Source: an uncultured Clostridia bacterium (GTDB lineage: Bacteria > Bacillota > Clostridia > TANB77 > CAG-508). From it: DNA of 64,000 bases. Below, piece by piece: positions 10,435 to 55,000 of the stretch. Location: assembly GCA_934168305.1 (NCBI GenBank), contig CAKPNF010000001.1, positions 143,480 through 207,479 of the forward strand, written 5' to 3'. Positions within the stretch are counted from its first letter, which is position 1; each line of letters starts with the position of its first letter. The position numbers were made by a program, and so were the translations under genes. The notes below the pieces were generated by a model. That model worked only from the letters and a program-made list of their open reading frames with translations, did no database searches and was not told where the DNA came from.

Positions 10435-10495
10435 AATTAATAATCTTAAAATATAAATTTAACAATTAAATTATATAATTAAGGAGGAAACTTAT

Positions 10496-11377: not shown

Positions 11378-11433
11378 GCTTTAAATTTAATCACAAATAA
11401 AAATAGAAAAACGAACATTTTTTTGAAAAAGTA

Positions 11434-11462: not shown

Positions 11463-11515
11463 TATCTCATAAAGCAAACAAATATTCTTTAAATAGAGAA
11501 GCGGAGGTAATTATA

Positions 11516-11812
11516 ATGAAAATAGTAAACAAAGCAAAATTTATCAGAACAATTAGTATATTAATAATACTTATATGTATAATAACAATTTTTTCAAAAA
11601 ATACATATTCAAATGTAGAAACAAGTTATAAAGAAGATTATATTTACACTGGAGATACATTATGGAGCATTGCAAAAAGAGAGATAGAAAACAATAAATA
11701 TTTTGAAAACAAAGATATTAGAACTGTAGTAAATGAATTAAAAAATGTAAATAACTTTACAAATTGTGAATTATACCAAGGACAAAAAATAAAAATTCCT
11801 ATCTATAAATAA
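11516..11812 (+). CDS. small TM + LysM protein, YneA-like architecture (possible SOS cell-division inhibitor)
   Basis: 98 aa with an N-terminal TM (ISILIILICIITIF) and a C-terminal LysM (YTGDTLWSIAKREI...GQKIKIP). GGAGG RBS. Confidence 0.55.
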   Translation: MKIVNKAKFIRTISILIILICIITIFSKNTYSNVETSYKEDYIYTGDTLWSIAKREIENNKYFENKDIRTVVNELKNVNNFTNCELYQGQKIKIPIYK

Positions 11813-19379: not shown

Positions 19380-19400
19380 AAGAAAACGAGGTGGTAGATA

Positions 19401-20999: not shown

Positions 21000-21111
21000 T
21001 TAATATATACAACAATTTAAAGATCAATATAATTAAGGAAAAGTACATGAAGAAGTGAGAAATAATGTTAAGTCCTAAACAAAATATAAAAAACAAATAG
21101 GAGTTGAAAAT

Positions 21112-22101
21112 ATGAATAGTGATATAAAAATAAGAAAAGTAAATCAAACAGATGCCACTAAATGGTTTAAATTTGTTAATAAGGTATGGAGAAGTGCATA
21201 TATAAATATTTTTCCAGAAGAGGTTTTCTTAGAAAAAGAAAAAAATGTTGAAGAGAAAGAAAAAAATTTTAATAAAAAAATATTTAATGACAACAGAAAT
21301 ATTGCACTAGTTGCAGAATATAAAGGAGAAATTATTGGAATAATGCGTGGTTCAATTAATTCAAATTATGAACATTTTAATGTAAAATATGCAGATTTAA
21401 TTGGATTATATATAGATCCTGATTTTCAAGGAAAAGGAATAGGTAGTAGCTTTAAGAGAATGTTTGAAGAATGGGCAATAAAAAATGGCGCAACTAAATA
21501 TGTGATTGGAGTATTAAAAGACAATCATAAAGCAAGAACTATATATGAAAAATGGGGTGGTAAATTATCAACTTATGAAGAGGATTTTTATAAATTAGGT
21601 GTTGCTTATAAAGAAGTATTTTATACATATGATTTATTTGATGATATAAAATATAAAAATGGAAATTTTAATTTTGCATACAGAGTGTCTGCAATTATGT
21701 ATAATGAAGATGAAACAAGAATTCTTTTATTTTATGGAGATGACATGGAATTCTATATGTTGCCTGGTGGAAAGGTTAAGGAACAAGAAAAAAGCATAGA
21801 TGCAATTAAAAGGGAAATTTATGAAGAATTAGGATATAAAAATTTAGAATTTAAATTTGCAGGAGTAAGTGAAGAATTAATTTCTGAAAAAGATAAGTTC
21901 ATTCAAGAAATAACTATAACATACAAATGCAAATATAATGGCGATATCAAAGAAAAATCTTTTAAAAGTAAAGAATCAGATTGGATTAACTTTAAATGGG
22001 TAGAAATAAATAAGTTAGATGAATTTAATATCTACCCTAGTAAAATTTCATCAATTGTAAATAAAAGTAGTAATCATATAGTAGAAGAAAAAAATAAATA
22101 G
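21112..22101 (+). CDS. GNAT N-acetyltransferase fused to a NUDIX hydrolase domain
   Basis: GNAT motif A (LYIDPDFQGKGIGSS) in the N-terminal half. Nudix box GGKVKEQEKSIDAIKREIYEELGY in the C-terminal half. Confidence 0.8.
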   Translation: MNSDIKIRKVNQTDATKWFKFVNKVWRSAYINIFPEEVFLEKEKNVEEKEKNFNKKIFNDNRNIALVAEYKGEIIGIMRGSINSNYEHFNVKYADLIGLYIDPDFQGKGIGSSFKRMFEEWAIKNGATKYVIGVLKDNHKARTIYEKWGGKLSTYEEDFYKLGVAYKEVFYTYDLFDDIKYKNGNFNFAYRVSAIMYNEDETRILLFYGDDMEFYMLPGGKVKEQEKSIDAIKREIYEELGYKNLEFKFAGVSEELISEKDKFIQEITITYKCKYNGDIKEKSFKSKESDWINFKWVEINKLDEFNIYPSKISSIVNKSSNHIVEEKNK

Positions 22102-22258
22102 TTTTACGATTACTCGTAACAATACTATAATATATGACTGAAATTAAAATACTCCAACAGAAAAAAGACAAAGTAGGAAGGAAAACTCTATTTCAAAACA
22201 GAGCATTTTACAATTTAATAATAACTCGAAAATCAATTAGTTAAGGAGGAAATTCAAT

Positions 22259-36705: not shown

Positions 36706-36759
36706 TAGTCCAACAGAATTGCTTTATAAGTAATTCATAAAAAGAAAGGAGTGCTTTTT

Positions 36760-38193
36760 ATGGCCAAAGGAGTTCGGACAAAATGGTATGCAGATATTAG
36801 AGGATACCATAGTAAAGTAACAGGATCATGTATACGAAACACTATACACTTTTCCGATGGAGAAAAATTCCGTTTTTTAGTTGATTACGGTGTTTATCAA
36901 GGTGAAAGAGAAACTACAGACGAAGTGCTAACTTACAATGATAGTGTTAACCCAGAAAAGATTGGTGCTGTTCTCCTGACGCATACTCACCTTGATCATG
37001 ATGGTGCATTACCAATGTTTGTTCGGAATGGATATTCAAGAAATATTTATATGTCTATTCCAACATCAATATTGTTACCAGTAAGCCTCGAAGATAGTTT
37101 TAATGTTATGAAAAACATTTGTAAAACTAAAAAACAGCCTATGTTATTTAAAGAAGAACATATTTTTCAAACATTAAAACATGTGTGTGCAGTTAATTAT
37201 GAAGAAACTATCTCTATTCACCCTAATATTAATGTAACTTTTTTCAATAACGGCCATCTAACAGGTAGTTCAATAATTTTGGTTCAAATTTTTGATCCAT
37301 GTGGCGAAAGAATCAATCTTCTTTTTACTGGAGATTATAAGAAAGACAATATATTTTTAGATTTAAAGCCTTTGCCAGATTGGGTTTTAAAATTAGACAA
37401 TTTGACAATTATTACTGAATCAACTTATGGAGATACAGACTCTAAAGATGTTGAAAAAGTTTGGGCAGATAATATTAAGGAAGCTTGTAAGAATGACTCT
37501 ATAATTGTTATTCCTGTCTTTGCACAAGGAAGAATGCAAGAAATTATGTATAATGTAAAACTTCTTCAAAAAGAAGGCATTATCCCTGACAATTATATTA
37601 TTGAAATTGCTGGGAAAACAGGAATAAAGTACAATTCCGTTTATATGAGCCGTTTTAGAGACTTGTGCATCAAAGAAGAAATGGCATCATTTATTCCAAA
37701 TAATATTCACATTGTTGATTCAAAGAGTTCCATGTCTATCAGATGTGATAATAAAAAACCTAGAATTATTATAACAACATCTGGAATGGGAAATTTTGGA
37801 CCAGCAAATAGTTATATTCCTGAGGTATTACCAAATCCAAATGCAGTTATACACTTTACAGGATATATGGCAGAAGGCACTTTAGGAAGAAAACTACAGG
37901 AAACTAGACTTGGAGAAAGTGTTACTATTAAAGGCCGTATGGAAATTCCTAGAAGAGCTAAAATTTTTAGCACCAGTGAATTTTCTTCTCATGCAAAAGC
38001 TGATGAACTTATCGATTTTATTAATAAATTTAATCCTAGAGCTGTTTTAGTAAATCATGGTGAACATGAAGTTAAATCTATATTTGCTAAAAGAGTTGCA
38101 GAAAATACTTCTGCAAGAAAAGTTGGTATATTAGGAGAAGGATTTGTATATAGAATAGATCCATATGGGATTGTAAAACCAGTTAAAAAGTAA
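36760..38193 (+). CDS. metallo-beta-lactamase / beta-CASP family protein, RNA-type (paralog 2)
   Basis: HTHLDHDG, ESTYGD, IHFTGY, SSHA. Colinear with paralog 1. The ATG at 36760 follows AAAGGAG. Confidence 0.8.
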   Translation: MAKGVRTKWYADIRGYHSKVTGSCIRNTIHFSDGEKFRFLVDYGVYQGERETTDEVLTYNDSVNPEKIGAVLLTHTHLDHDGALPMFVRNGYSRNIYMSIPTSILLPVSLEDSFNVMKNICKTKKQPMLFKEEHIFQTLKHVCAVNYEETISIHPNINVTFFNNGHLTGSSIILVQIFDPCGERINLLFTGDYKKDNIFLDLKPLPDWVLKLDNLTIITESTYGDTDSKDVEKVWADNIKEACKNDSIIVIPVFAQGRMQEIMYNVKLLQKEGIIPDNYIIEIAGKTGIKYNSVYMSRFRDLCIKEEMASFIPNNIHIVDSKSSMSIRCDNKKPRIIITTSGMGNFGPANSYIPEVLPNPNAVIHFTGYMAEGTLGRKLQETRLGESVTIKGRMEIPRRAKIFSTSEFSSHAKADELIDFINKFNPRAVLVNHGEHEVKSIFAKRVAENTSARKVGILGEGFVYRIDPYGIVKPVKK

Positions 38194-39317: not shown

Positions 39318-40437
39318 TTAAGTTTTTTGACTCGTTCCCAAATCTTCTTTTAAAAAACTTTCCATGAATCCATCTAAATCGCCATCCATAACACCTTGCA
39401 CATTTCCTACTTCATAATTAGTTCTGTGGTCTTTTACCATAGTATATGGGCAAAATACATATGAACGTATCTGGCTTCCCCATGCTATATCTCTTTGTTC
39501 TCCTTTTAAGTCTTCAATTTTTTCTTTATGTTCTTGTTCTTTTAAATCAAATAGTTTGGATTTAAGCATTTTCATAGCAGTTTCTCTATTTTGAATTTGT
39601 GAACGTTCTGATTGACATGCTACAACAGTGTTTGTTGGAATATGTGTAATTCTTACTGCTGAAGATGTTTTATTTATGTGTTGTCCTCCAGCTCCTGATG
39701 CTCTGTATGTGTCAATTCTTAAATCGTCTGGATTTATATTTATTTCTATATCTTCTGTTATTTCCGGTAATACTTCTACTGATGCAAATGATGTATGTCT
39801 TCTTCCTCCACTGTCAAATGGCGAAATCCTTACTAATCTATGAACACCTTTTTCAGATTTCATGTATCCATAAGCATTTTGACCAATTATTTCAAATGTT
39901 ACACTTTTTATCCCTGCTTCTTCTCCTTCCAGATAATCAAGCTCTTTTACTTCATACTCGTTTTTTGTAGCCCATCTTGTGTACATTCTGTATAGCATCT
40001 CTGCCCAATCCTGTGATTCTGTTCCTCCTGCTCCTGGATGAATTGTAACTATTGCGTTATTTGCATCATATTTGCCAGATAATAATGTTTCTAGTTCTAA
40101 TTTTTCAATATTCTTTTGCTCTTTTTTAGTATTTTTCACTATATCTTTTGCTATTTCTTCATCAAATTCCAATTGAACTAACTCTGATAATTCTAATAAA
40201 TTGTTTATTTCTTTTTCTAATTTTTTATATTTTACATATTTACTTTTTATTCTTTTTATTTCTGATAATACTTTTGTTGTATTTTCTGTATCTTCCCAAA
40301 ATTCTTGTTTTGTTGTTTTTTCTTCTAATTCATTCAATTTTTTTTCTAAACTAGGTATGTCAAAGAGACTCACCCAAGCTTTTTAATTTTTCTTTTAATT
40401 CGTTAAGTATCTTGATTGTTTCTTCAAGTTCTAACAT
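39318..40437 (-). CDS. prfB: peptide chain release factor 2, with programmed +1 frameshift
   Basis: A 25-codon leader ORF (MLELEETIKILNELKEKLKSLGESL*) ends in CTT TGA C. The +1 frame continues as the 351-aa RF2 body with SPF and GGQ (SGAGGQHINK) motifs. Confidence 0.9.
40359..40365 (-). promoter_or_regulatory. RF2 autoregulatory +1 frameshift site CUU UGA C
   Basis: The rc of 40359-40365 reads CTTTGAC, preceded by a purine-rich GGGTGAG SD-like element. Confidence 0.85.
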
Positions 40438-41304: not shown

Positions 41305-41365
41305 TTACTAATTTTTGCCACAGCAGTTTTTATATTTTTTTCCAGAACCGCATGTTCTAGCACCT
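41305..41365 (-). pseudogene. displaced, degenerate copy of the secA 3' end (SEC-C zinc motif)
   Basis: The rc translates to ...[16 protein letters not shown], compared with the secA C-terminus [20 protein letters not shown] identity is ~75% over the first ~50 nt from the stop. A terminator hairpin, GTTAACATA-N7-TATGTTAAC, follows at 41270-41294. Confidence 0.75.
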
Positions 41366-41636: not shown

Positions 41637-42113
41637 TCAATATTTGTAATTTGAAATTTTATCTATAATGTCAGAATGAATTACTTTTTCAAAAATATCA
41701 TTTGCTTCTTTCCTAGATTCATCAGAACTAGATATATAATAATTTTCTGTTGTTTCAATATTTTTATGACCTAAAATATCAGCAACATCTCTTATTTCTA
41801 CTCCATTTTTTAATATTCTTGTTGCATAACTTCCTCTTAGATCATAAAATCTGCAATTTTTAATTCCTAGTTTTGGAGTTAATTTATCAATTGCTCTTTT
41901 TAATTTTTCATAATCTCTTTTAAGGTTTTCAAATGGGTTATTATCATTTTTATCTTGAATTTTGGACCATTCTACATAATTTATTTTTTCTTCTCGCTTT
42001 TTAATAACTTCAAGATGTTTCTCATAATCAAGTTTTTTATGTAATAATGCTATTTGCATATAATTTAAGAATCTAGCAAATACTACATCATCCTCTAACT
42101 CAATATCAAACAT
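41637..42113 (-). pseudogene. tyrosine integrase C-terminal fragment
   Basis: YDLRGSYATRILKNGVEIRDVADILGHKNIETTENYY covers only the HxxR...Y catalytic end. The N-terminal half is unrelated sequence. Confidence 0.7.
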
Positions 42114-42838: not shown

Positions 42839-44393
42839 TTATCTACTCACATCCTCGATTGAAGTATCTCTGTTAACTAAATGTAATTGTTCTAATTGTC
42901 TTTCGGTAATATTTATAACTTTACCACAACATGGATTAAAGTCTTTATTTCCATATACTAGCCAAATAACATTTTCCCTTTTTAAATCTTCCTTTGGCAT
43001 TGTACCAGGGCAAGGATAACCATCAGTAAATACTATTTTGTTGATTTCTCTCTTTTTAGTAAAACTTCTTACTGCTAAATCCCAATCCTCAGTCCATGCA
43101 GAATCTCCTCTAGCTCCTCTAGGTATTGTAAAATTGTCTATATCTCTTGCACTTTTAATATCTACAAGTCCCCAAAATTTTTCGTTAAAGCATCCAACTT
43201 TTAATTTTGATTGCTTTAATATTGGCTTTATTTGTCTTAAAAATGCTTTTACTAAATCTAAATCTACTGATCCAGAAACATCTATCATAATTTCTGTTTC
43301 AGCCTCATCTTCTATATCATTTTCTTCTAGTCTATAGGCATAATTATTTTCTGCAATAGAGCGTCTTTGGCTCCAAATTGTTTCTGTTTTTTCTACTTCC
43401 CTTCGTAGCAAAACTTTCCAATCAATAGTTTCTTTACTATCACCTATGCTACCAAGTTCTATTGTTCCTTCCTGTGTTCCTCTTATGTCGTGTTCTGTTT
43501 TTTCACGCCTTGCTTTAAATCTTTTTCTTTTTTCTTGTCTATTATCTTCAAATTCACTTCTCTCATCAAAGTCCATTTGTGGTTGTTCATCAATAGCTTT
43601 CTGTTTTTCTGCTCCTTCACTTTTTTGTTTTTGTCCTTGCTGTTGTTGATTTCTAAATGCTTCTTCCCATAAACTATGGTCATCTCCTTGGTGTGATGGT
43701 TGTTGTTTTCCTTCTCCTTCTCCTTCTTTTTCGCCTTTGCTTTCTCCATCACCTTGATTTCCATCCTGTTCTTGTTCCCCTTCTTGATTACCTTTTTGTT
43801 TATTTTGCTCGCCTACATCATTTTGACTACCATCTTTATTTTCACCATCTTGGCTTTGTCCACCACTATCACCTTGATTTTGTTCTTGATTTCCTTGTCC
43901 GTTTTTGTTCTTGTTCTTTTTGTTGCTTTTCTTTTTCTTGTAATAAAATTTGATAAAATTCTTCTGCCGAATAATTTAATGCTTCTGGCATATTTACATA
44001 TCCTTCTTTAATTGTAAATCCATCTCTCTCTAAATTAGCATTTATAATAGCATCAGTTGCAATATTCCACAATTCTGGATCTCTTTTTTTACCTTCTTTA
44101 TCTGTTAATCTATACATGTGCATAAATTTAATGTGCATTATTTCGTGTGCTATTGTAAACAATCTATCGCTTTCACTTAAATTTCCAAAATAATTAGGAT
44201 CAACATATATATTTTTCCCATCTGTTGCTGCGGTATGAAAAGGTAAATCATCTTTAAACTCAATATTTGCAACTGCAATTTCGCTACCAAATCTAGGATA
44301 TTTTGCCAACATTTTTCTTTTTACATCATAAATCATATCTACATTAGCATCCATCCGTTGCACTTCCCTTCTACCTAAAATGCAACCACGCAA
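42839..44393 (-). pseudogene. DUF2201-type protein: N-terminal HExxH metallopeptidase domain, Q/E/G/N-rich linker, C-terminal vWA domain. Frame-broken as assembled.
   Basis: HEIMH in ORF 43869-44393 and the MIDAS motif DVSGS in ORF 42839-43576. The vWA frame is open without stops from 43900 down to 43576 and joins the first ORF at the in-frame CGG at 43901-43899. Confidence 0.7.
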
Positions 44394-44743
44394 AGATTAT
44401 GAAGTTCTGATGATATATTTTTTAATCTATCTTTATTTTCAACGGTTAAAACTATAACAACATCCTCTGGTAATAAAATTCCATTAAATTCTCTATCTTT
44501 CACTATTTGATAAAATTTATCTTGTTTGTCTAGTTCTAATTTATCAATTTCTTCTATTACAAGAAATTCAAATTTCTCATCTGCTTTAGATATTTTTTCT
44601 TTAAAGATTTTAAGTAATTCATTATCTTTACATTTTGAATTGATTAAAATCTTTGAATTAAGTTTTTCTATATCTTCGTTTTGAATTATAGCACAAGTAG
44701 CTTTACATCCTTTTTGCAATTCAATTAAATCTATATTCATCAT
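44375..44743 (-). CDS. hypothetical protein (122 aa)
   Basis: ORF tightly packed between the 162-aa ORF and the DUF2201 gene. No motif. Confidence 0.5.
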   Translation of the reverse strand: MMNIDLIELQKGCKATCAIIQNEDIEKLNSKILINSKCKDNELLKIFKEKISKADEKFEFLVIEEIDKLELDKQDKFYQIVKDREFNGILLPEDVVIVLTVENKDRLKNISSELHNLCVVAF

Positions 44744-44748
44744 TATTT

Positions 44749-45237
44749 TTAGCCCCTTTCCTTTTTATTTATAAAGAAACTTAATATTTTATTTAAAAAC
44801 TTTTTAAATAAACCTTCTTCTTTATATTCAATTATAGAGGTTTCTTTTTCAGTTACATTTTCAGTAATTGTATTTGTTTTTGCTTCTTTTTTATTCTTAA
44901 ATATGTCATCTATATCATAATTGTCCATTTTTTCCGTTTTCTCTGTCTTTGAATTATTAGCATGTATTATATTTTTATAATTGTTTCTATCTTTATCATT
45001 GCACCACCAAGTAATATAAATAAATCCTAAAAGTTCTCTAGTCTGCTTTCTTAAATTAAGTCCACTAATTGGCCCATTATGATTAAAGTTTGCTTTGTAA
45101 TTCTTATTTGCGATTTCTGTTAGAAATTTTATAAAACTTTGTGGTATTTTTCTTACATCTTCTTGATTTGTATAATTTAATATATCTAAAACTTCAACTG
45201 CTGCCTCGCTATACTCAACTTCTCTCATTATCTTCAC
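44749..45237 (-). CDS. hypothetical protein (162 aa)
   Basis: Overlaps the end of the DGR target by 23 nt, consistent with translational coupling. No motif. Confidence 0.5.
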   Translation of the reverse strand: MKIMREVEYSEAAVEVLDILNYTNQEDVRKIPQSFIKFLTEIANKNYKANFNHNGPISGLNLRKQTRELLGFIYITWWCNDKDRNNYKNIIHANNSKTEKTEKMDNYDIDDIFKNKKEAKTNTITENVTEKETSIIEYKEEGLFKKFLNKILSFFINKKERG

Positions 45238-47470
45238 CTCTCATTTCTTTAGTATCTCTGCCTAAATAACTGCTATACATTTGTCCTATGCCTGTATATG
45301 CAGTTGCACCATCTTGTGCAAATTGTTCGGCTTCCATTCTAGTATGTAAAGATAATGCCTGCTCTTGCAATTCTGCAATTCTTTCCATCTTTCTTTCATC
45401 ATTTCCAGCCCAATATATATCGTAAATTGATAAATATTCTGGATCACAATGTTTTCTTATAAAATCTCTACAAGCTTCAACTTGTTTTTCATCCGCCGTT
45501 ATTAAAGCAGTCATATAAGCAAATCTCTCACTTATATCTCTAGGTAAATCTGCTTGTGTATATCCTTTTCCCATACCTTGTGTTACTTCTTCTGGTGTTA
45601 ATGTAGGTAAATTATAAAAATCAAAGAATTCACTAGCCCATTCCATACGAAGTTTTGATTCTATTGACCTTTGAATTATATCCTCAACATCTTTTCCTTC
45701 ATATCTTCCTGCTTCTAAATTTCTTTCAAAATTATATAATGTATTTGAAATTGAAGTCCATCCACGAGGATCATTTGTTCTTCCTTTGCATCCATTAGCG
45801 TCTAAATGTTGTTCTCCAACATCTGGCTCCTCATAAAAATATCCAATATCTTGTATAGCTTCACTTTTACCAGAATTGTTGTATTTTGATAGCATATATC
45901 CTATTACTGCTGGATGAATTTTATGTGGTATTGCATATTCTGTAATCCATTCTCCAACTTTAGGCTCCATATCTAAAATATGGTCGAATCTCTTTTCTAG
46001 TGGCTCTGCCAAATCTTCTGCTACACTTGAATATTTCTTTTGATTTCCTGTTGCTACTACAACCACATTATCTGGTAGTTTAAGTCCTTTGCCTATCTCT
46101 ACCATTCTATTTAATACCAAAGTATATACTAAACTTTGAACTGCTGGTTTAACATTCAAAAGCTCATCTAGCATAATTACAACTTTTTTATCACTCTCTT
46201 TTGACCTTTCATAAACTGTATCTGCTATATCAAATATACTTTGTATATTTTCTTCCACCATTTTTCTTTCTTCTTCCGTTGCTTCTTGCATAATAGCAGT
46301 CTTTGCAAAATCTGGTGGTATGCTTTGTCCTGTTTGCAAATTAACTGATCCCACTACTTTTTCTGGGAACATATTATTTGTTAATTTCATATATATTAAA
46401 TCTGGATATAATGATTTAATTCTTTCCGTTTTTCCTATTCCAGATGGACCTCTTAATAATACTGATTCTCCTGCTTCAATCCAATTCTGTATTATTTCTG
46501 TATCGGTCATTCTTACTCTACTAGCTTGTTTAGTCTTATCTGGATTTAATTTTTGTAATCTTGATTTTCTAGGCTGAATTTCTGGTATTTCTTCACTTTG
46601 TTCTCCTAGTTCTATTGTTCCTCTTGACTGTTCTAATTCTTTAGATAAATATTTATCCATAAATGTTTTAATGTCTGTTCTGTCAAAATCTTTTGTATGA
46701 TAATCTCTTGTATGTTTAAATTGAACTCCAGCAAAAATCAACTTATCTGTAAGCATCATCTTTGCCCTTTCATCAACTAACCATTTTACCGGAGCAACTT
46801 CTACCCATACAGAATCGCCATCTCTATAACTCTCTCCATTTGAAAGTTTAAATTCACCACCATCAAAGCAAGAATTTGCTTCTACTCTCACATATCTCTT
46901 TCCATCTAATTGAAATTCCTCGTGTTGTTTTGGCGAAAACACTTCATCGTATTCATCATATTTTCTTGAATCTGTTGTATATTTCTTTCCAGTTCTTGAT
47001 AAACTTCTTCTTTCAAAAGCTCTTTCTAGTTTTTCTTGCATATCTCTTGATACAGCTTTTTGTGGATAGTATCCATACTCTACCTCTAAAACACCATCTC
47101 TTGCTCTTTTTGGTGCCCCACTCACTCCGTTCGTGGGGATGCTAGAGATTGATGAGAACGGTAAAGCTGGGCGAGCCCCACCATGGCGTGAGTCAACATT
47201 GTCGAGGAAACCAACACCATCGACATCGACCACGAGCGCGTCATTATCTCCATAATCTGATTTAGTCCAATAATATCCAGTTCTTCCCTCTAATGAGTCA
47301 TCACCATCTATATGACAATAATCTCTATCTCTATCAACCCATCCTCCTAGTAATATAGAAAAATCTGTTATTACTGCTTCTTTTCCTCTTTTTTGTAATA
47401 TATCTAATGTTTCACTTTCAAAACACTGCTCTTGTGTCAAAAAAGTTAGATTACTCATAATAAAATTCAC
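45215..47470 (-). CDS. DGR target protein: N-terminal variable ligand-binding-like domain fused to a MoxR/AAA_5-like ATPase
   Basis: The VR encodes residues ~76-101 (…GYYWTKSDYGDNDALVVDVDGVGFLDNVDSRHGGARPALPF). Walker A LLRGPSGIGKT, Walker B VVIMLDELLN. 751 aa. Confidence 0.8.
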   Translation of the reverse strand: MNFIMSNLTFLTQEQCFESETLDILQKRGKEAVITDFSILLGGWVDRDRDYCHIDGDDSLEGRTGYYWTKSDYGDNDALVVDVDGVGFLDNVDSRHGGARPALPFSSISSIPTNGVSGAPKRARDGVLEVEYGYYPQKAVSRDMQEKLERAFERRSLSRTGKKYTTDSRKYDEYDEVFSPKQHEEFQLDGKRYVRVEANSCFDGGEFKLSNGESYRDGDSVWVEVAPVKWLVDERAKMMLTDKLIFAGVQFKHTRDYHTKDFDRTDIKTFMDKYLSKELEQSRGTIELGEQSEEIPEIQPRKSRLQKLNPDKTKQASRVRMTDTEIIQNWIEAGESVLLRGPSGIGKTERIKSLYPDLIYMKLTNNMFPEKVVGSVNLQTGQSIPPDFAKTAIMQEATEEERKMVEENIQSIFDIADTVYERSKESDKKVVIMLDELLNVKPAVQSLVYTLVLNRMVEIGKGLKLPDNVVVVATGNQKKYSSVAEDLAEPLEKRFDHILDMEPKVGEWITEYAIPHKIHPAVIGYMLSKYNNSGKSEAIQDIGYFYEEPDVGEQHLDANGCKGRTNDPRGWTSISNTLYNFERNLEAGRYEGKDVEDIIQRSIESKLRMEWASEFFDFYNLPTLTPEEVTQGMGKGYTQADLPRDISERFAYMTALITADEKQVEACRDFIRKHCDPEYLSIYDIYWAGNDERKMERIAELQEQALSLHTRMEAEQFAQDGATAYTGIGQMYSSYLGRDTKEMRGEDNERS
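47116..47138 (-). other. GC hairpin 28 nt downstream of the VR (DGR-type cruciform/hairpin element)
   Basis: CCCCAC (47116-47121) and GTGGGG (47133-47138) with an 11-nt loop, lying inside the coding sequence. Confidence 0.6.
47167..47244 (-). repeat. DGR variable region (VR)
   Basis: 78 nt aligned to the TR without gaps, with 18 mismatches, 16 of them at TR adenines. About 59% GC. Confidence 0.9.
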
Positions 47471-47572: not shown

Positions 47573-48597
47573 TTAACTTTTTTTAGGGAATGAATCTTCT
47601 TTTAATTTTTTATTTTCTTTTGTATCTTTTATATGATTATAAAAAGCATTTTTTCTAATGTAAACATAGTTATCATCTACTATATCTTTATCTCGTAATT
47701 TTTTTAAAGTCTTTAAATGCCTTTTCAACCTCTGTTTAGATGAAGCTCTTAATTTTCTTGTTATACTGCCATTCTTGTTCAGGATATGTCTATATCCCAA
47801 AAAATCTATACCATTTCTTACTACACCTATTTGAGTTTTCTGATTAAGTGATAATTTCAAGTCTGTCTTACACTTGTTTTCTATTTCCTTAAGGCTGTTT
47901 TGTAAATATCCTTTATCTCTATGAATTAAGATCATATCATCCATATATCGAATGTACCCTTTTACTCTCAATACTTCCTTAATAAATCTATCAATAACAT
48001 TTAAGTATAATAGTGCAAACCATTGGCTAGATTGATTTCCTAGTGGCAATCCTATATTAGCTTCATTAGGTTGTTCTTTTATAAGTTTTTCAATCATCCA
48101 CATTTCATCTTCTGAAAAGTCGATTTTCTTTAATAAATTTAATAAAATTTTGTGATCTATGCTAGGGAAATATTTTGTAATATCACATTTTAAATAATAA
48201 ATATTGTTATTGTTTTCTTTTCTATATTCATCCTTTAAAAACTTTTCCAATCTTTTAATAGCAAAAGTTGTTCCTTTTTCTTTTCTACAGGCTGCGTTAT
48301 CATATATGAGTTTTCTTTCAATCTTATCTCTTAATACTACATCACAAAAACATTTAATAACTACCCTGTCTTTAAAGGGTAATGCCTCTATTACTCGCTT
48401 TTTAGGCTCATATATAAAAAAATTCTGTATTCCCCTAGTTTGTATTTTTTTGAAATAATATCATTCATAAGATTTGTTATATTTACTGAAAGATTAGCTT
48501 CAAATCTTATTACTTCTCCCTTATGTTGTTTAGATCTTCTGCATCCTTTATATGCTTCATATAAATTTTCAAATGTAAAAATTTCTTCAATTTTCAT
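47573..48597 (-). CDS. DGR reverse transcriptase (two frames joined at a U UUU UUA heptamer)
   Basis: N-terminal FENLYEAYKGCRRSKQHK, IGLPLGNQSSQWFALLYLN (DGR-type motif 4) and YIRYMDDMILI (YMDD). The frames join at 48415-48421. Confidence 0.85.
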
Positions 48598-48819
48598 ATC
48601 TTTTTTCCCCCTAAAAAAAGAACGCCTCTCAAAACTTGCAAAAAATAGTTAATCTATTCGTTGCTCGTGTAAGCGTTCATTTATTCTTCCACCGCACTAT
48701 ATATAGCGGTTAGAAAAGAGAAAAATTCCTTCACTTTAAAATACTGGTATATTTTACCTAAAATATACTTCTCTGATTTGTTTTTTAATCCACTTTTATA
48801 GGATTTATCAAAAGTGAAT

Positions 48820-48897
48820 CTGGGCGAGCCCCACCATTGCGTTTGTTAACATTGTTGTTGTTCCTATTACCATTTTCATTGACCACGCGCGCGTCAT
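48820..48897 (-). repeat. DGR template repeat (TR)
   Basis: Lies between avd and the RT. The coding-sense strand is rich in AAY (…AAT GAA AAT GGT AAT AGG AAC AAC AAC AAT GTT AAC AAA CGC AAT…). The 3' 18 nt, ATGGTGGGGCTCGCCCAG, are identical to the VR. Confidence 0.9.
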
Positions 48898-48940: not shown

Positions 48941-49549
48941 TTAATTAAAAACCTTTCGGCTTAAAATCCTAACTTCTTTTTCTCCATCTATCATCATCAC
49001 TTTTTTCCATGCTACTGTTAAATTTATTGCCTCTGCTAGTTGGATGGAAATCTGTTTATATTGTTTATTTAAAATACCCCCTGAACTTTCTGCAACCATA
49101 GATACATATCCCAGTAGTTTTAACTTTACTACTGCCTCTTTTTGTAATTCTTCTCTTTTGGTCTTTTTTTCTGGAGCATCCATTCTAATAAAATTTGCTT
49201 CCAATAAGCACTCCAGAGTATCTAGGCAATAATTTTGCATCCTATTAACAAATACTCCTCTAAATTTTTTTGGTGATTTTTCTGTAACTGCTATTGTGTA
49301 TGCTGCCAGCTTTTTAACTACAGTAATTACCATTAAATCGTTTGCATTAAATGGTATCTTATTTACTTGTTCTAGCTCTTTATCATCCTCAATTTTTTCT
49401 ATTTCGGATTTTTTATTAAACTTTTTATTATTGGCAGTAGCAATAGACTGCTTTACTGCCAATTTATCTTCAATATTATTTTCTACTCCATTAGCATCTT
49501 CTAATTTTTTAGGTATTTTTAAATTACTATCTCGACTTACTTGTAACAT
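48941..49549 (-). CDS. avd: Avd-like accessory variability determinant (four-helix-bundle type)
   Basis: The C-terminal ~130 aa (SPKKFRGVFVNRMQNYCLDTLECLLEANFI...NKQYKQISIQLAEAINLTVAWKK) fits the Avd / 23S-IVS four-helix-bundle pattern. An internal start at 49333 would give a canonical ~130-aa protein. Confidence 0.65.
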   Translation of the reverse strand: MLQVSRDSNLKIPKKLEDANGVENNIEDKLAVKQSIATANNKKFNKKSEIEKIEDDKELEQVNKIPFNANDLMVITVVKKLAAYTIAVTEKSPKKFRGVFVNRMQNYCLDTLECLLEANFIRMDAPEKKTKREELQKEAVVKLKLLGYVSMVAESSGGILNKQYKQISIQLAEAINLTVAWKKVMMIDGEKEVRILSRKVFN

Positions 49550-49616: not shown

Positions 49617-49997
49617 TTAGAAGTTTTCACTTATTCTTTGTACTTTATTTAAAACTTCATTATATTCTTCCCTACTTACATTTGTTCCATCTAATGACTT
49701 TTGAAACTTCTTTTCTTCTTCTGATAAATCCATTTCTGGATCATCAATATCGCTAATTGTTTTATCTACACATTTTAATATTTCAAGCATTCTTTTTATA
49801 ATTTCTCTTACATCAATGTTACTAAATTTAAAGCATTCTTTTGCTTTATTAAATAATATTTTATATTCAAGTTTTGTTAGATCTACTATATTATTTTTTT
49901 CTAATTGTTTATACAACTGATGAACTATGTATAAATCCTCTAAATCTTCCTTTTCTTCATCAGTTAATCTATTATATTTTTCAAATATATTTATCAT
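49617..49997 (-). CDS. hypothetical protein (126 aa, acidic)
   Basis: ORF overlapping the stop of the upstream gene by 4 nt. Confidence 0.5.
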   Translation of the reverse strand: MINIFEKYNRLTDEEKEDLEDLYIVHQLYKQLEKNNIVDLTKLEYKILFNKAKECFKFSNIDVREIIKRMLEILKCVDKTISDIDDPEMDLSEEEKKFQKSLDGTNVSREEYNEVLNKVQRISENF

Positions 49998-50893
49998 ATA
50001 TCGTATCCTCCTATATCTTCAATTTCATCTTTATTAGGTACAAAAAAAGAAGGACTTTTCTTGTCCCTCGTTAATTCATTTGTAACACTTTTATAATAAT
50101 AATTTATAAAGCTCTCAATTGGATTATTCAAATCTTTGTATTCATCTTCTTTGAGTTTACAATCATTATATATTTTCAATAGTTTATCTCTACTAACTTT
50201 GTGAATTAGGTATTGTAATTTATCTCTAACCATTAAGGCTATTGCATAATCTATAACTTTTATTCTTTCAAGATTATCTCCAGTTATATATTGTAAAGAA
50301 TCTTTTGTGTATAACATTTCGTATTTCTTTAGTAGATTATATATTTCATTAAAATCCACTTTTGAAAATTCTGCTGGAAAATCCTCTTTATTATTTATAA
50401 TATAATTAAAAAATCTATCTATCTTATTAATACTTATAATATTATACTGTCCTTTTTGGGACATACCCTCTGTCCCATTTATCGAATAGGGGTATGTCCT
50501 ATTTATCGTATAGGGTGTATCATTTGGATAAATTCTTCTTTGGATAATTTCGCCTTTTTCATTTTTTATCATATCTAAACAAACAAAACCGCATTCTCTT
50601 AAATGAGAAACCCATTTTGATATTGTATGTGGTTGTGCATCTAATAAATTGCTTAAATAAGCATTTGAAGCGAAACAATAACCTTCTTTATTGGATAATA
50701 TAGTTATTATTGCATATAACAATTTTTCATTTGCTTTCAAATCTTTATTAAATAAAATCGTAGCTGGAATAACTGCATAATATCCTATTTTGTTTTCTTC
50801 ATTCAAATTATTTATTCCCCCTCTCTTACCTTCAACTTTTTTAGGGGTAAATAAATTGCTAGATATTATTTCAATAACAACTTTTAAGAACAC
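49994..50893 (-). CDS. wHTH replication-initiator/DnaD-like protein of mobile elements
   Basis: YYAVIPATILFNKDLKANEKLLYAIITILSNKEGYCFASNAYLSNLL...TISKWVSHLRECGFV resembles the HTH_36-type N-domain of phage/ICE replication organisers. Confidence 0.55.
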   Translation of the reverse strand: MFLKVVIEIISSNLFTPKKVEGKRGGINNLNEENKIGYYAVIPATILFNKDLKANEKLLYAIITILSNKEGYCFASNAYLSNLLDAQPHTISKWVSHLRECGFVCLDMIKNEKGEIIQRRIYPNDTPYTINRTYPYSINGTEGMSQKGQYNIISINKIDRFFNYIINNKEDFPAEFSKVDFNEIYNLLKKYEMLYTKDSLQYITGDNLERIKVIDYAIALMVRDKLQYLIHKVSRDKLLKIYNDCKLKEDEYKDLNNPIESFINYYYKSVTNELTRDKKSPSFFVPNKDEIEDIGGYDI

Positions 50894-52017
50894 AGTTCCA
50901 ACTCATTTGCAAAATCTTCAAATTTATCAACTGTATCCGTTTTCATTTTTTTAGTAACTCTTACATATATTTCATAAGTAGTTCTAATATTACTATGTCC
51001 TGATCTTTTGGCAATAGCTTTTATATCTGCTCCTGCTTCGATTAATTTTGTAGCATGTGTTTCTCTAAAATCATGGAATCTACAATTAATTCCTAATTCA
51101 TAATGAATAACTTTAAATGGATATTTACAAGTATCTGTACCTTCAAATACTCCATTATGTTTTACAAACACAAGATTAACTTCTTTTAATGCTTTAACTA
51201 GAGTATCTCCTATTTCAATTGTTCTATAAATTCCAGGTGTTTTACAAGTACCAAAATACCATACTGTTGTTGCTTTACCACTAATGTGCCTACCATGAGT
51301 TGCTCCGTTTTGATTTTTCTTTAATACATTTTTATTTACTGTTAATGTTTTATTTTCTAAATCAATATCATCCCATGTTAATGCAAAAACCTCTGCTGCT
51401 CTTAAGCCAGTACAATATGCTGTTAAAATAGCATAATACATAGCATGATTATTTTTAAATCCATCTAACATCATATTTATTTCTTCATTAGTAAATATAT
51501 GTGCTGGATTCTTTTCAGGAATATCATATTTAGGTAATGAAGCCTTTATAGCTGGATTTACTTTTATAAAACCCACTTTATCTGTTGCATATCCAAACGA
51601 TGTTTTTAATACTTTTAATATATTTTTTAAAAAGTTTTTTGAATATCCTTTTTCAAGATAAATATTATTTATAAATTCGTGTAATGTTGATGTAGTAATT
51701 TGTGTTAATCTATAAAAACCTAATCTTGGTCGAATATGATTTTTTATAATATTTGAATATGCTTGTATAGTATGATATTTAAGATTAACATGACAATAGT
51801 TTTCTAACCAATAATCAAGATAGTCACTATAAGACATTGTAGCTGGTGTAAACGAATGTCCTGTTTGCGTATATTCATTATAAGCCTTTATACCTGCTTC
51901 CTATGCTTCCTTTTTTGTTTTAAAACCTGACTTAACTTGTTGCTTTCTCTTTCCATTTACTGGTACAATTTCAAAATAATATTGATAACTCTTTCCTCTT
52001 TTTCTAACATTGACTAT
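50884..52017 (-). pseudogene. tyrosine integrase with an in-frame TAG and no canonical start
   Basis: The catalytic region is intact (HDFRETHATKLIEAGADIKAIAKRSGHSNIRTTYEIYVRV). The arm-binding N-terminus IVNVRKRGKSYQYYFEIVPVNGKRKQQVKSGFKTKKEA is in frame but separated by TAG at 51903-51901. The only codon correctly spaced after GGAGG is ATA (52017-52015). Confidence 0.7.
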
Positions 52018-52246: not shown

Positions 52247-55000
52247 TTACTGATTTCTTCCACAACAGTTTTTGTATTTCTTACCACTTCCACATGGACA
52301 TGGATCATTTCTACCAACTTTTGGCCCTTCGTTTACAACTGTTTGACTATATTCAGGAGTATTAATTTTCTTTCCACCATCAACACTATTGATGGCTTCT
52401 AAAGCTGCTCCTGTAATCTTAGCAGTTTCTTGTCTTTGTGCATTTCCGTTTTGTTTTCTGATATTCATAAGAATCTTAACGACATCTAATTTAATGTTTG
52501 CAATCATTTCATCAAACATATCCATACCTTCCATTCTGTATTTTACAACAGGATCTTGTTGTCCATAAGCTCTTAATCCAATACCATTTTTTAATTCATC
52601 CATACTATCAATATGATTCATCCATTTTTCATCAACAACCTTAAGCATTACAACTCTTTCAAGTTCTCTCATTTTCTCAGAAGTAATTTCATCTTCTTTA
52701 GCTTGATATTTTTCAGTTGCTTGTTTTTCTAATTCCTCTATAATTGCATTTGAATCGTCTTTATGTTCTTTAATATAGTCTAACATATCTAACCCATATA
52801 CGTTTGTTATTTCTGTATTTAAAGACTCTACGTTTACAGATTTTCCATCTTCTCCCTCAATAAACATTGAAACTGTTTCTTCTGCAATAGAATTTATCAT
52901 ATTTAATATGTTATTATGAATATCTTCTCCATCTAAAACTTCTCTTCTTTGTTTATATATGATTTCTCTTTGTGCATTCATAACATCATCATATTTTAAT
53001 ACATTTTTACGAATACTAAAGTTTCTACCTTCAACTTTCTTTTGAGCGTTTTCAACAGCTTTTGAAATCATTCTAGAAGCTATTGGCATGTTTTCGTCTG
53101 CTCCTAAAGTATTGTAAACTCTTGTTATAGCATCTCCACCAAAGATTTTCATTAAATCATCATCTAATCCTATATAGAATCTTGATTCTCCGACATCACC
53201 TTGACGTCCAGAACGACCTCTTAATTGGTTATCGATTCTTCTTGATTCATGTCTTTCTGTACCAATTATTTTTAATCCACCGGCATCAATAACTTTTTGT
53301 TTTTCTTCTTTTATTTGTTCATCGTATTTTGCAACTAATTTATTAAATTCTTCTCTTGCTCTTAATATATCTTGATCATTTGTTTCATAATATGTGTTTG
53401 ATTCTTCTATTAAGTTTGCTGGTACTTTATTTTTTCTCATTTCTTCTTTTGCTAGATATTCACTATTTCCGCCTAACATAATATCAGTACCACGTCCTGC
53501 CATGTTTGTTGCTATTGTAACTGCACCAAATTTACCAGCTTGTGCAACTATCATAGCTTCTTTTTCATGTGATTTTGCGTTTAATACTTCATGTGGTATA
53601 CGTGCTTCATTTAATAATTTACTCAATTTTTCTGATTTTTCAATTGATACTGTACCAATTAGAACTGGTTGTCCTTTTTCATGGCTTTCTTTTACGCTTT
53701 CAACAACTGCTCTGAATTTTGCTTTTTCATTTTTGTAAATTACATCATTTTCGTCTTTTCTTATCATAGGTTTGTTTGTTGGTATTTCTACGACATCTAA
53801 GTTGTAAATTTCTTCAAATTCTGATTCTTCTGTCATAGCTGTACCTGTCATACCTGATAATTTATCATACATTCTAAAGTAATTTTGGAATGTTATTGTT
53901 GCTAATGTTTTTGATTCATCTGCTATTTTTACTTTTTCTTTTGCTTCAATTGCTTGATGTAGTCCATTATTATATCTTCTTCCATACATAATACGTCCTG
54001 TAAATTCATCAACAATTAAAACTTCTCCATCTTTTACGATGTAGTCTATATCTTTTTTCATTACCCCATGTGCTCTTAATGCTTGGTTTACATGGTGTAC
54101 TAATGTAGAGTTCTCTAAATCATTGAAGTTTTCTAATCCGAAAAATTCTTCAGCTTTTTTTATACCTTTTTGTGTTAATGATGCTGATTTTGCTTTTAAG
54201 TCTACTATATAATCGTATTTTTCATTATCTTCTGCTTGCTCAAAGTCTTTTACATCTTCTTCAACTATAACTTTTGCTTCTAGTTTTCTTACGAAATCAT
54301 TTGCTTTTTTGTATAAATCTGATGATTCATTTGCTCTACCTGAAATGATAAGTGGTGTTCTTGCTTCATCTATTAAAATACTATCGATTTCATCGACTAT
54401 TGCATAGTGTAATCCTCTTTGAACTAATTGATTTTTATAAATTACCATGTTATCTCTTAAGTAATCAAATCCAAATTCATTATTTGTACCATATGTAATA
54501 TCTGCTGCATATGCTTTTTGTTTTGCTTGTGGATCCATTCCTGCAATTACCAGTCCTACTGAAAGTCCTAAGAATTTATATAATTTTCCCATCCATTCAC
54601 TATCTCTTTTTGCCAAGTAGTCATTTACTGTAATTACGTGAACTCCTTTTCCTTCTAATGCATTTAAGTATACTGGTAATGTTGCAACTAATGTTTTTCC
54701 TTCACCAGTTTTCATTTCTGCAATTCTTCCTTGGTGTAATATAATTCCACCTATTAATTGTACATCAAAATGTCTCATTCCTAAGGCTCTTTTTGATGCT
54801 TCTCTAACAACAGCAAATGCTTCTGGTAATATATCGTCTAAAGTTTTTCCTTCTGCTAATTGTTTTTTAAAGTATTCTGTTTTTCCTTTTAATTCATGGT
54901 CTGTTAATTTTTCCATTTCTGGTTCTAAACTGTTGATTTTTTCTACTATTGGCATTACCCTTTTTACTTCTTTTTCACTGTATGTTTTGAATAGTTTCAT
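52247..55000 (-). CDS. secA: preprotein translocase ATPase SecA
   Basis: 917 aa with DEAD-like motor motifs ([28 protein letters not shown]) and the C-terminal SEC-C zinc motif [14 protein letters not shown]. Confidence 0.97.

Follow-up and report, generated by a model that had tools for sequence, protein, structure and literature searches.

A DGR-targeted N-terminal module on a MoxR-class AAA+ ATPase encoded with a protease-vWA partner in gut Clostridia

DGR-diversified C-lectin domains have been described computationally in MoxR-vWA and STAND NTPase conflict systems (Kaur 2020, PMC7159879; Doré 2024, PMC10907252), with the lectin domain located at the C-terminus of the vWA or STAND protein (PMC7159879; PMC10907252). 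The locus reported here resembles those DGR vWA-MoxR (VMAP/iSTAND) ternary systems in having a DGR-diversified C-lectin-type domain within a cytoplasmic MoxR AAA+/vWA/peptidase gene set, in the proposed logic of a hypervariable sensor acting through an NTPase switch and an effector, and in that duplicated targets are common. It differs from them in the placement of the module, since their FGS/C-lectin domain follows a 'strict syntax', at the C-terminus of the vWA protein or of a different target, STAND or other, while here the MoxR ATPase itself bears the module at its N-terminus, or a separate gene directly upstream encodes it. Moreover, the vWA partner carries an N-terminal DUF2201_N zincin instead of C-terminal effectors, no VMAP component was found here, the lectin-like module is related to DUF6273 and not TvpA/FGE-like, and the hosts are unicellular gut Clostridia and not multicellular cyanobacteria or gammaproteobacteria.

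DUF6273, a C-lectin-like domain, is an established DGR target, and tentaclins provide known examples of 5′-proximal VRs in this domain (PMC10743442). Such targets (PMC10743442; PMC11792537; bioRxiv 10.1101/2024.10.15.618418) share with the present one a VR that ends the C-lectin-like unit and forms a beta-hairpin plus loops, the gut Firmicutes habitat, and the persistence of targets in genomes that have lost their former DGR. However, they are virion or receptor-binding proteins with DUF6273 alone or before Ig-like domains, whereas here the domain order appears permuted, with a ~100-aa insertion, and the module is part of an AAA+ ATPase whose operon is cytoplasmic and lies on a non-phage island. 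The ATPase part is structurally closest to the pairs NorQ-NorD and CbbQ-CbbO (PMC13036017; PMC9976466; PDB 9QH4/9QHD, 6L1Q), which also have a same-operon vWA/MIDAS partner, laid out here as in NorD (N-domain, linker, vWA); but in those pairs the ATPase has neither a DGR nor a hypervariable N-terminal module, the partner has no zincin and the client is a defined metalloenzyme (cNOR, Rubisco), and the present ATPase has an extra C-terminal helical region of ~250 aa. Antiviral STAND NTPases (Avs, bNACHT) and DGR-diversified STAND sensors also fuse a variable ligand sensor to an NTPase, recognition activating an effector; here, in contrast, the NTPase is of the MoxR AAA+ class, the sensor is N-terminal and the effector would be a separate zincin-vWA protein. 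The first-pass annotation of this DNA had stated that no characterised example was known. Given the precedents in MoxR-vWA/STAND systems and in tentaclins, the concept is not new, and only the architecture is.

The window (the whole 64,000-nucleotide stretch analysed) contains a DGR, composed of Avd, TR and RT, upstream of its single target gene; these and the other features located below are on the minus strand. The target gene (45215..47458), delimited from the ORF list, Pfam and full-length single-ORF homologues, encodes an N-terminal variable module followed by a MoxR-class AAA+ ATPase. The ORF (45215-47470) has 751 aa counted from the GTG at 47470, or 747 aa if the ATG at 47458 is the start. 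The variable repeat (VR, 47161..47244, core 47167-47240) forms an 84-nt repeat with TR and encodes aa ~72-99 in ATG numbering, codons 76-103 in GTG numbering. VR and TR show 20 mismatches over the 84 nt, with 17/20 at TR adenines. The 3′ end of VR is the GC-rich, IMH-like sequence ATGGTGGGGCTCGCCCAG (47167..47184), which is the same in TR and beyond which both repeats diverge; this 18-nt sequence occurs exactly twice within the window, with 0 occurrences expected. The ORF and its VR were thus found where the first-pass annotation had located them.

The Avd accessory gene (48941..49549) encodes an N-terminally extended protein of 202 aa, assigned by PHROG 3206 ('Avd protein of DGR', E 8e-16), the matches to Pfam bAvd (E 1.7e-3) and NCBIfam DivGenRetAVD (E 4.5e-6) being under the curated cut-offs. 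The template repeat (TR, 48814..48897, 74-nt core 48820-48893), found by a repeat search of the window through its pairing with VR, has A at 29/84 nt and abundant AAY codons. Between loci, TRs are 90-95% identical, while VR-to-TR identity is just ~70-80%. The reverse transcriptase (RT, 47573..48597) is broken by a 1-nt deletion into ORFs 48391-48597 (68 aa) and 47573-48250 (225 aa) in different frames. Alignment with intact RTs places the lesion in a homopolymer (T8 to T7) at 48416-48422, where the intact relatives and locus L041 have one base more. The frame-corrected RT of 341 aa matches RVT_1 (E 8e-17) and has the motifs LGNQSSQ and YMDD.

The DGR writes adenine-directed variation into the N-terminal module (N-module), and it is active in close relatives. 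In 32 VR copies compared with 5 TRs, entropy was 1.63 at the columns of TR adenines versus 0.71 elsewhere (p = 5e-10), and in 100 full-length proteins it was 1.71 in the VR versus 0.36 outside it, some pairs of proteins being 100% identical outside the VR with 8-10 VR residues changed. Two loci with intact RT from two samples (L046 and L047) differ at 15 positions over 16,220 nt, and 13/15 of these differences are within 39 nt of one VR, every one at a TR adenine. L041 is 98.9% identical to the window, yet it has 18 mismatches inside 51 nt of VR. A natural control is provided by the P0289 lineage, where the 10 kb upstream of the target consist of IS fragments with no avd/RT, and the VR is static over ~40 protein clusters on hundreds of contigs. 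Related genomes therefore display the VR diversification that the first-pass reading called for, and it is adenine-specific.

Concerning the fold of the N-module (aa 1-281, 46616..47458), AF2 predicts one compact domain (pLDDT 93.3, pTM 0.92) of ~280 aa in total, with a C-lectin-like half (the first ~100 residues, containing the VR) and then a beta-rich half. The VR corresponds in this model to strands 73-77 and 83-87 and the loop after them. The family comprises 2365 representative clusters. In the tandem N-modules of P0122 and P0135, matches to DUF6273 straddle the module junction, and DUF6273 proteins were 2/4 of the top matches, non-significant, in a BFVD structure search; the DUF6273 search with the window's target protein gave no match, and Foldseek with the N-module gave no significant C-lectin match. 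The N-module looks like a circular permutation of DUF6273.

Beyond the N-module, the target protein is a MoxR-class AAA+ ATPase of the NorQ/CbbQ class. The AAA+ module (aa ~316-665, 45464..46513) matches Pfam AAA_5 (27.5 bits, cut-off 22) and PHROG 1297 (ATPase, E 4e-33), with Walker A GPSGIGKT at 46427-46450 and Walker B IMLDELL at 46157-46177. The AF2 model of this part (pLDDT 70) has NorQ as the best Foldseek match (E 1e-8, TMt 0.60-0.65), with CbbQ and McrB after it, in agreement with the earlier view that the small N-terminal module bearing the VR belongs to a MoxR-class ATPase. Downstream, a conserved 162-aa ORF (44749..45237), syntenic in most loci, overlaps the end of the target gene and received no assignment by Pfam, PHROG, PADLOC or NCBIfam. 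A conserved 122-aa ORF (44375..44743), identified from synteny and BLASTP, is an AAA+-like fragment: it is 26% identical to the target over 66 aa (E 0.002) and resembles the segment from Walker B to sensor 1, without a P-loop. Then comes an ORF for a DUF2201_N zincin peptidase with the motif HEIMH (43869..44354; Pfam DUF2201_N E 5e-26 on the corrected protein), weakly similar to the minimal zincin MJ1213, and finally the ORF of a vWA domain with MIDAS motif DVSGS (42839..43576; Pfam DUF2201 vWA-like E 1.6e-3, under the cut-off), the frame of which runs upstream through a Q/E/G/N-rich linker to ~43880. Both small ORFs and all four motifs had been read correctly from the start. The DUF2201 gene had been described as one unit with a ~100-aa linker; its peptidase and vWA domains are present, but a frameshift in the low-complexity linker (~43870-43910), evident in three-frame translation, separates the peptidase from linker and vWA, and the linker measures ~170 aa. 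In relatives the gene is intact (479-511 aa), in the order zincin peptidase, long low-complexity linker and vWA/MIDAS domain.

The block formed by the ATPase, the 162-aa and 122-aa ORFs and the zincin-vWA gene is kept in dozens of gut Clostridia loci, which answers the neighbourhood check suggested in the first-pass annotation. The fusion of N-module and ATPase is no assembly artefact, as >20 related loci and about 100 database proteins have both parts in a single ORF. In one abundant lineage, N-module and ATPase are separate, overlapping, adjacent genes within the same operon, which supports a functional link and does not refute it. The context is always a mobile or variable island with recombinases and toxin-antitoxin genes, and tandem target paralogues with different VRs occur. 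Diversification is not obligatory, since most operon-bearing loci lack an adjacent DGR. The arrangement of a DGR-targeted module on a MoxR ATPase with a protease-vWA partner is real and widespread, and it is mutating in close relatives.

As to function, the interpretation that we favour, by a little more than even chances, is that the operon is a diversifiable cytoplasmic conflict sensor/effector in which an ATPase-vWA-zincin device is coupled to hypervariable recognition. A hexamer of the ATPase would present six hypervariable modules, whose ligand in the cytoplasm would most probably be a protein from a phage or another mobile element invading the cell, and tandem paralogues would broaden the repertoire. 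In NorQ-NorD, the vWA domain inserts a finger into the pore of the ring, and the linker of NorD is remodelled by the ATPase (PMC13036017). By analogy, the ring would engage the DUF2201 partner by its vWA domain and linker, and this action would switch or position the zincin peptidase, linking recognition to proteolysis. Of the interpretation in the first-pass annotation, the DGR, the placement of the VR and the conservation of the operon are borne out, while defence is a proposed role; the operon matches no known defence model in PADLOC, and the window's own copy is probably frozen.

This last point leads to the most probable of the alternatives, to which we give a real but less than even chance: that the window's locus is a non-functional relic, with a dead DGR, a split effector gene and no working system. 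The locus belongs to an integrative island of ~11 kb, inserted at the secA 3′ end (secA stop 52247), its far boundary marked by a remnant copy of that end (41308..41353, 47/62 nt identical). The island backbone (49617..51837) comprises a 126-aa ORF (49617-49997), an HTH_36 replication-initiator-like gene (49994-50893; Pfam, PHROG) and a tyrosine integrase (50884-51837; Pfam, PHROG), whose N-terminal arm-binding-like region is interrupted by an in-frame TAG (51901-51903); in L012, a related island is located between secA and prfB. The independent Logan assembly L032, 100% identical over 10 kb, carries the RT and DUF2201 frameshifts too, so that the window's copy is a decaying instance; the RT split recurs in L031 as well. 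The RT deletion, the DUF2201 frameshift and the integrase stop together indicate that the VR is probably frozen, that this copy probably no longer diversifies, and that the coupling of ATPase and peptidase has probably been lost or altered. The sister lineage L041 has its own, different inactivating RT lesions (TAA at codon 24 and a ~220-nt deletion). Against a mere relic, no damage is seen in the 747-aa target, Avd or the two small ORFs, and the DUF2201 split is within the linker, so both domains could still be made separately. Besides, the split is common to the window and L041 although their VRs differ, which is compatible with diversification after the split.

Leaving aside the state of this copy, the conflict reading has to be compared with an unlikely one in which the module serves the mobile element and not the host, either as a retargetable AAA+/zincin machine by which host defence proteins are remodelled or degraded, or in satellite-like sensing of a helper phage. 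The small island with integrase and replication initiator, without structural genes, would suit this, as would the relative found beside lysin-, holin- and tail-fibre-like ORFs in an IMG/VR contig and the frequency of MoxR- and DUF2201-like genes in phages, lytic ones included. On the other hand, the operon often lacks the island backbone and sits at stable chromosomal sites, the P0289 lineage being on hundreds of contigs, and no relative of the N-module was confirmed when 2.9 M viral contigs were scanned by pattern.

To our knowledge, the characterised MoxR-vWA pairs are maturation chaperones and not immune effectors. An ordinary chaperone of the NorQD, CbbQO or RavA-ViaA type, with the N-module as substrate adaptor, the DGR as a lineage-specific add-on and no immune role, would fit the nearest structures, the vWA partner in the same operon and the many loci without adjacent DGR. 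We consider it improbable: no candidate client enzyme is conserved nearby, the operon is found on mobile or variable islands that also carry toxin-antitoxin genes and recombinases, alleles that are otherwise identical differ by turnover of their VRs, and a single fixed client is at odds with a hypervariable binding surface, with tandem paralogues of differing VRs and with a zincin-bearing vWA partner. Finally, that the module is an extracellular or phage-type receptor-binding domain like those of tentaclins and Mtd-like proteins, only incidentally fused to the ATPase, is very hard to believe even though DUF6273-type domains are DGR targets in gut Firmicutes phages, N-terminal in some, because covalent fusion or translational coupling ties it to a cytoplasmic AAA+ ATPase, Ig-like domains are absent after it, the viral contig collection contains almost no members of the family, and no operon component has a signal-like or transmembrane segment (maximum Kyte-Doolittle value of 1.27 over 19 residues).

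A minor observation concerns the stretch directly 3′ of the VR within the coding sequence (47116..47161), where the first-pass annotation had seen a DGR hairpin. That hairpin found no clear support: the stretch has two alternative 6-bp stems (CCGTTC/GAACGG and CCCCAC/GTGGGG) with a fold z of -0.5, and pair counts show several mismatches beside a few compensatory changes. The stretch is a candidate DGR cis element, unproven, and its clear feature is a spike of GC3: GC3 is 0.50 in codons 91-114, the highest such window of the gene, versus 0.16 in the whole target gene.

The only long repeat of the region pairs positions 47161-47244, inside the 747-aa target gene at 45215-47458 (-), with positions 48814-48897 (-). 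Out of the 20 mismatches between the two copies, 17 fall at adenines of the latter, which is full of AAY codons. The pair thus constitutes the variable repeat (VR) and the template repeat (TR), respectively, of a diversity-generating retroelement (DGR), and the placement of a DGR VR in the target gene by the first-pass annotation was correct. The VR covers codons 76-103 counted from a GTG start, or approximately residues 72-99 counted from the ATG. Both repeats end in an identical, 18-nt, GC-rich, IMH-like block, beyond which the sequences diverge. Two copies of this block are present in the window, versus zero expected, and no further VR was found there. Concerning the proteins of the DGR, the product of the gene at 48941-49549 (-) matched the PHROG family 'Avd protein of DGR' with E = 8e-16 (Pfam and NCBIfam matches were weaker and below the cut-offs), which identifies it as the accessory protein Avd. 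The reverse transcriptase (RT) gene at 47573-48597 (-), after correction of its frame, matched RVT_1 with E = 8e-17 and displayed the motifs LGNQSSQ and YMDD. The RT adjoining the TR is intact in the related loci L004, L012, L017, L019 and L046, and is broken in the window by a 1-nt deletion.

The DGR is active in the target family. In five loci analyzed with their own TR, 11-13 mismatches between TR and VR occurred at adenines and 0-2 elsewhere. Over 32 VR copies, the entropy was 1.63 in the columns of TR adenines versus 0.71 in the other columns (p = 5e-10), with flank values of 0.43-0.50; TR identity between loci was 90-95%, and VR-to-TR identity was about 70-80%. The same was seen in 100 full-length target proteins, with an entropy of 1.71 in the VR versus 0.36 elsewhere, and several protein pairs showed 8-10 differences in the VR and none across the approximately 720 residues outside it. 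Proteins P0376, P0377 and P0386 are distinguished from one another by the VR alone. The clearest case was the comparison of loci L046 and L047, stretches of 16,220 nt from two samples, ERZ28615524 and ERZ827460, in which Avd is intact, the RT has 340 aa, there are two targets, and the DUF2201 gene encodes 507 aa. In total, 15 positions differ between these loci, 13 of them within 39 nt of the VR of the second target, and all these 13 at TR adenines. A natural control is provided by the most prevalent lineage, P0289, which carries IS fragments in place of the DGR and the VR of which is essentially invariant in about 40 protein clusters, on hundreds of contigs. Mutagenic retrohoming was thus evidenced in relatives but not for the window copy, as the VRs of loci L031 and L032 are the same as the window VR. 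For finding the ligand, the natural locus pairs that differ almost solely in the VR could be used directly.

The window copy itself is a degenerate, decaying instance of the family; the accessions of the window strain are ERZ28615578 and ERR7738938. The RT is broken into ORFs of 68 aa and 225 aa by the shortening of a T8 run to T7 at 48416-48422 (-), the extra T being kept in intact homologues and in the sister locus L041. The DUF2201 gene at 42839-44354 (-) undergoes a frame change inside its low-complexity linker, at about 43870-43910. An assembly artefact as the cause of both frameshifts was rejected: the window sequence recurs with 100% identity in an ENA scaffold of 307 kb and in an independent Logan assembly, both of which show the RT and DUF2201 genes split in the same way, so neither frameshift is a random assembly error, and the sister lineage has T8 at the RT site. 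In locus L041, which is 98.9% identical to the window, the DUF2201 gene is split as well, while the RT bears other lesions, namely a TAA at codon 24 and an internal deletion of about 220 nt. As L041 keeps the T8 run and yet has lesions of its own, RT loss was repeated and independent. The two loci show 18 differences within 51 nt of the VR, compared to about one per 130 nt elsewhere. This VR divergence, together with the differing RT lesions, indicates recent diversification in the lineage, followed by more than one loss of the RT. Besides the frameshift, the linker region at about 43600-43910 (-) contains 6-nt and 21-nt indels relative to L041, indicating that this Q/E/G/N-coding stretch is prone to slippage.

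The fusion of the variable N-module (residues 1-281) to the ATPase is real and is conserved. A tblastn search with the island proteins against 24 related loci gave full-length, single-frame homologues with 40-89% identity, most of them followed by the genes of 162 aa and 122 aa and by an intact DUF2201 gene, so the gene block pointed out in the first-pass annotation keeps the order ATPase/162/122/DUF2201 in most of these loci. Many loci contain two or three target paralogues in tandem. About 100 additional full-length proteins were found with an ATPase part 89-100% identical. MAGs of uncultured Clostridia from the gut of Hadza humans, rabbit, mouse and sheep are the source of the related loci. 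An apparently split arrangement also exists: in the abundant P0049 lineage, with over 120 contigs, two genes of the same operon that overlap by 17 nt encode the N-module (283 aa) and the ATPase (466 aa), and loci L025-L030 show this overlapping pair (10001-10852 and 10836-12236 in L025). The occurrence of fused and apparently split forms in the same operon indicates that N-module and motor form a functional pair, which is sometimes fused. In loci L033-L035, stand-alone, tandem N-module genes (10001-10768 and 10809-11648) adjoin ToxN-like and HTH genes, with no ATPase, vWA gene or RT nearby, indicating that the module works also outside the MoxR operon.

The N-module was modeled with AlphaFold2, from an alignment of 84 sequences, as a single compact domain (pLDDT 93.3, pTM 0.92), with the VR predicted to occupy a β-hairpin (strands 73-77 and 83-87) plus the next loop. 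Its affiliation was not apparent from direct searches. In Pfam, no significant family was obtained with the N-terminal 108 aa, the N-terminal 290 aa, the family consensus or artificially permuted sequences, only weak Fib_succ_major and AgI_II_C2 noise being recorded. DUF6273 (PF19789) gave no match at E ≤ 10 with the window N-module, the family consensus or the artificially permuted versions. A profile search of PDB sequences returned no match at E ≤ 10, and Foldseek found nothing significant for the model in PDB or BFVD, so a direct assignment to the C-lectin or FGE folds is not claimed. The first and fourth BFVD matches were DUF6273 domain-containing proteins (E about 0.15, TM 0.26). When 1.84 billion representatives were searched with a profile, an N-module family of 2,365 clusters (955 at E < 1e-30) was delineated, with modules that are stand-alone, in tandem, or fused to AAA_5, ankyrin, DUF4116, nSTAND3, LRR or DUF2201. 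In tandem-module relatives, the DUF6273 model straddles the junction of two modules, covering the end of the first and the VR half of the second. Thus, in protein P0122 it matches residues 214-375, the second module being at 277-588, with 26.3 bits versus a cut-off of 23.5; protein P0135 shows the same pattern (E = 3e-4). DUF6273 has been described as a C-lectin-like DGR target of gut Firmicutes phages, with the VR at the C-terminal end of the domain. The comparisons support a permuted, divergent relative of DUF6273 rather than DUF6273 membership, and the N-module is most simply read as a divergent form of that domain related to it by circular permutation, with the lectin-like VR half first and an insertion of about 100 aa. 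In this family of more than 2,300 clusters, the module is combined with ATPase, ankyrin, STAND and vWA domains.

The position of the VR departs from the near-universal C-terminal placement, which Roux et al. attributed to the need for intergenic cis elements. With an N-terminal VR, such elements must be encoded within the reading frame, and a sign of this is visible as a spike of GC3: it reaches 0.50, the gene maximum, in the 24-codon window that starts at codon 91 and includes the IMH and the sequence downstream, compared to 0.16 gene-wide. The spike is consistent with a nucleic-acid constraint. Candidate hairpin stems 3′ of the VR were weak, with a folding z of −0.5, no better than shuffles, and with mixed covariation.

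Concerning the motor, the ATPase part of the target matched AAA_5 (27.5 bits versus a cut-off of 22), with Walker A GPSGIGKT and Walker B IMLDELL, and PHROG 1297 (E = 4e-33), while no relative was found in PDB at the sequence level. A model of moderate quality was obtained with AF2 (pLDDT 70). The top 18 matches of this model in Foldseek were NorQ and CbbQ structures (E from 1e-8 to 1e-6, TMt 0.5-0.65), followed by McrB; the NorQ structures, alone and complexed with the vWA domain of NorD, matched with E = 1e-8 and TMt 0.60-0.65. The predicted structure is thus nearer to MoxR members than to other AAA+ clades. The vWA partner, with a MIDAS motif, is provided by the DUF2201 gene, in the same operon across loci. 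Its product is composed of DUF2201_N (PF13203, E = 5e-26, with the motif HEIMH), a Q/E/G/N-rich linker of about 170 aa, and a vWA part (PF09967) that matched below the cut-off (E = 1.6e-3) and contains the DxSGS motif, as DVSGS. It belongs to the DUF2201 zincin-vWA family, although the window gene is split by the frameshift. The two small ORFs located between the target and the DUF2201 gene on the (-) strand (162 aa and 122 aa) had no family match in Pfam, PHROG, PADLOC or NCBIfam. The 122-aa ORF (44375-44743 (-)), which lacks a P-loop, showed 26% identity over 66 aa to the Walker-B-to-sensor-1 segment of the target AAA+ domain (pairwise E = 0.002). One possibility is a degenerate AAA+ fragment with a role as partner or regulator of the ring.

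The function proposed in the first-pass annotation, a DGR-diversified sensor, can be upheld in part: the underlying observation stands with corrections, and the sensor function is what we infer from the architecture. No transmembrane-like segment was found in any protein of the system, so this would be cytoplasmic. We lean towards a cytoplasmic, diversifiable sensor coupled to a zincin under the control of the MoxR/vWA pair. The ring would act on the zincin via the vWA domain and the linker of the DUF2201 partner, by the precedent of NorQD, in which a finger of the vWA domain inserts into the pore of the ring and the linker of NorD is remodelled by the ATPase (PMC13036017). A bolder idea, which we regard as rather improbable, is that the operon encodes a DGR-programmable AAA+ protease or remodeller, which would give unicellular Firmicutes of the gut a proteolytic immune effector that is both anticipatory and retargetable. 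The MoxR hexamer would then have six lectin-like, hypervariable receptors attached to the motor itself, capture a protein of an invader or rival element, and deploy the zincin via the vWA finger and linker. Were it true, this programmable protease would differ from the sensors linked until now to multicellular bacteria, which are borne on vWA or STAND proteins.

The concept of a DGR-diversified lectin in MoxR-vWA systems is already known, and it is the architecture of this family that is new. Kaur et al. and Doré et al. described DGR-diversified FGS/C-lectin domains in MoxR-vWA (VMAP, iSTAND) and STAND systems, mainly of multicellular cyanobacteria and gammaproteobacteria, where the lectin domain is invariably located at the C-terminus, either of the vWA component or of a separate target. 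In contrast, in the window family the VR module is N-terminal, is carried by the MoxR ATPase and is related to DUF6273 in permuted form; the partner is a DUF2201 zincin-vWA protein, and the hosts are gut Clostridia, where the system occurs in small islands with recombinases and toxin-antitoxin genes. The VMAP layout (Kaur 2020) was not found, as the vWA protein has the zincin at the N-terminus and nothing at the C-terminus, and the small ORFs matched no family of Pfam, PHROG, PADLOC or NCBIfam. The family differs also from tentaclins, since the module is followed by an AAA+ ATPase rather than by Ig-like/Fn3 domains and is encoded in a non-phage island rather than belonging to a virion. No description of this target or operon family was found in the literature searched, NCBIfam gave no system-level assignment for the operon, and no defence-system model of PADLOC was matched: the sole match was a fragmentary DolB (21 bits), and the five remaining proteins of the scan, among them the DUF2201 protein and the two small ORFs, matched nothing. 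The window family extends the DGR-diversified NTPase conflict systems, described in multicellular cyanobacteria and gammaproteobacteria, to unicellular Clostridia that are abundant in the gut.

A prophage origin of the block was rejected, since a profile-pattern scan of viral contigs did not find the N-module, and the TR/VR junction occurs in a single IMG/VR contig, L045 (IMGVR_UViG_3300006217_003178, 3-2824). There, an avd-RT-target cassette adjoins lysin-, holin- and tail-fibre-like ORFs, and the target, which runs off the stored stretch, has an N-module merely 43% identical; L045 may be a phage-borne relative. Phage homologues of the ATPase and peptidase are distant (23-40% identity), and the three phage neighbourhoods inspected were uninformative. 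The uncharacterised pair of MoxR and DUF2201 zincin-vWA proteins, common in phages too, gains a testable role.

The block belongs to an insertion of about 11 kb, with all its genes on the (-) strand, located between secA (stop at 52247) and prfB, in DNA with a GC content of about 27%, like a Clostridia genome. The sequence for the SEC-C tail of secA is doubled (41308-41353 (-) and 52247-52300 (-), as a 62-nt copy with 47/62 nt identical), and its presence at both ends indicates integration of the island into the 3′ end of secA. A related island, in L012, is likewise located between secA and prfB. The first gene of the series encodes a tyrosine integrase (50884-51837 (-)), the N-terminal region of which is interrupted by an in-frame TAG at 51901-51903 (-) that cuts off an N-terminus of arm-binding-like type (VRKRGKSYQYYFEI...KTKKEA), so that the integrase encoded by the remaining ORF is probably a truncated one. 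An HTH_36 replication-initiator-like gene and a 126-aa ORF, both (-), lie between the integrase and Avd genes. A second recombinase inside the island, a 158-aa, C-terminal-only tyrosine-recombinase fragment at 41637-42113 (-), suggests an older nested or decayed element. The neighbouring prfB has a canonical +1 programmed frameshift site, CTT TGA C, at about 40360-40375 (-), between a short leader ORF and the main ORF (39318-40373), which is ordinary. Just outside the island there are also two tandem beta-CASP/RMMBL (RNase J-like) genes, one at 36751-38193 (+) and its upstream neighbour, seen in L031 at 19266-22205; this pair is unrelated to the DGR finding.
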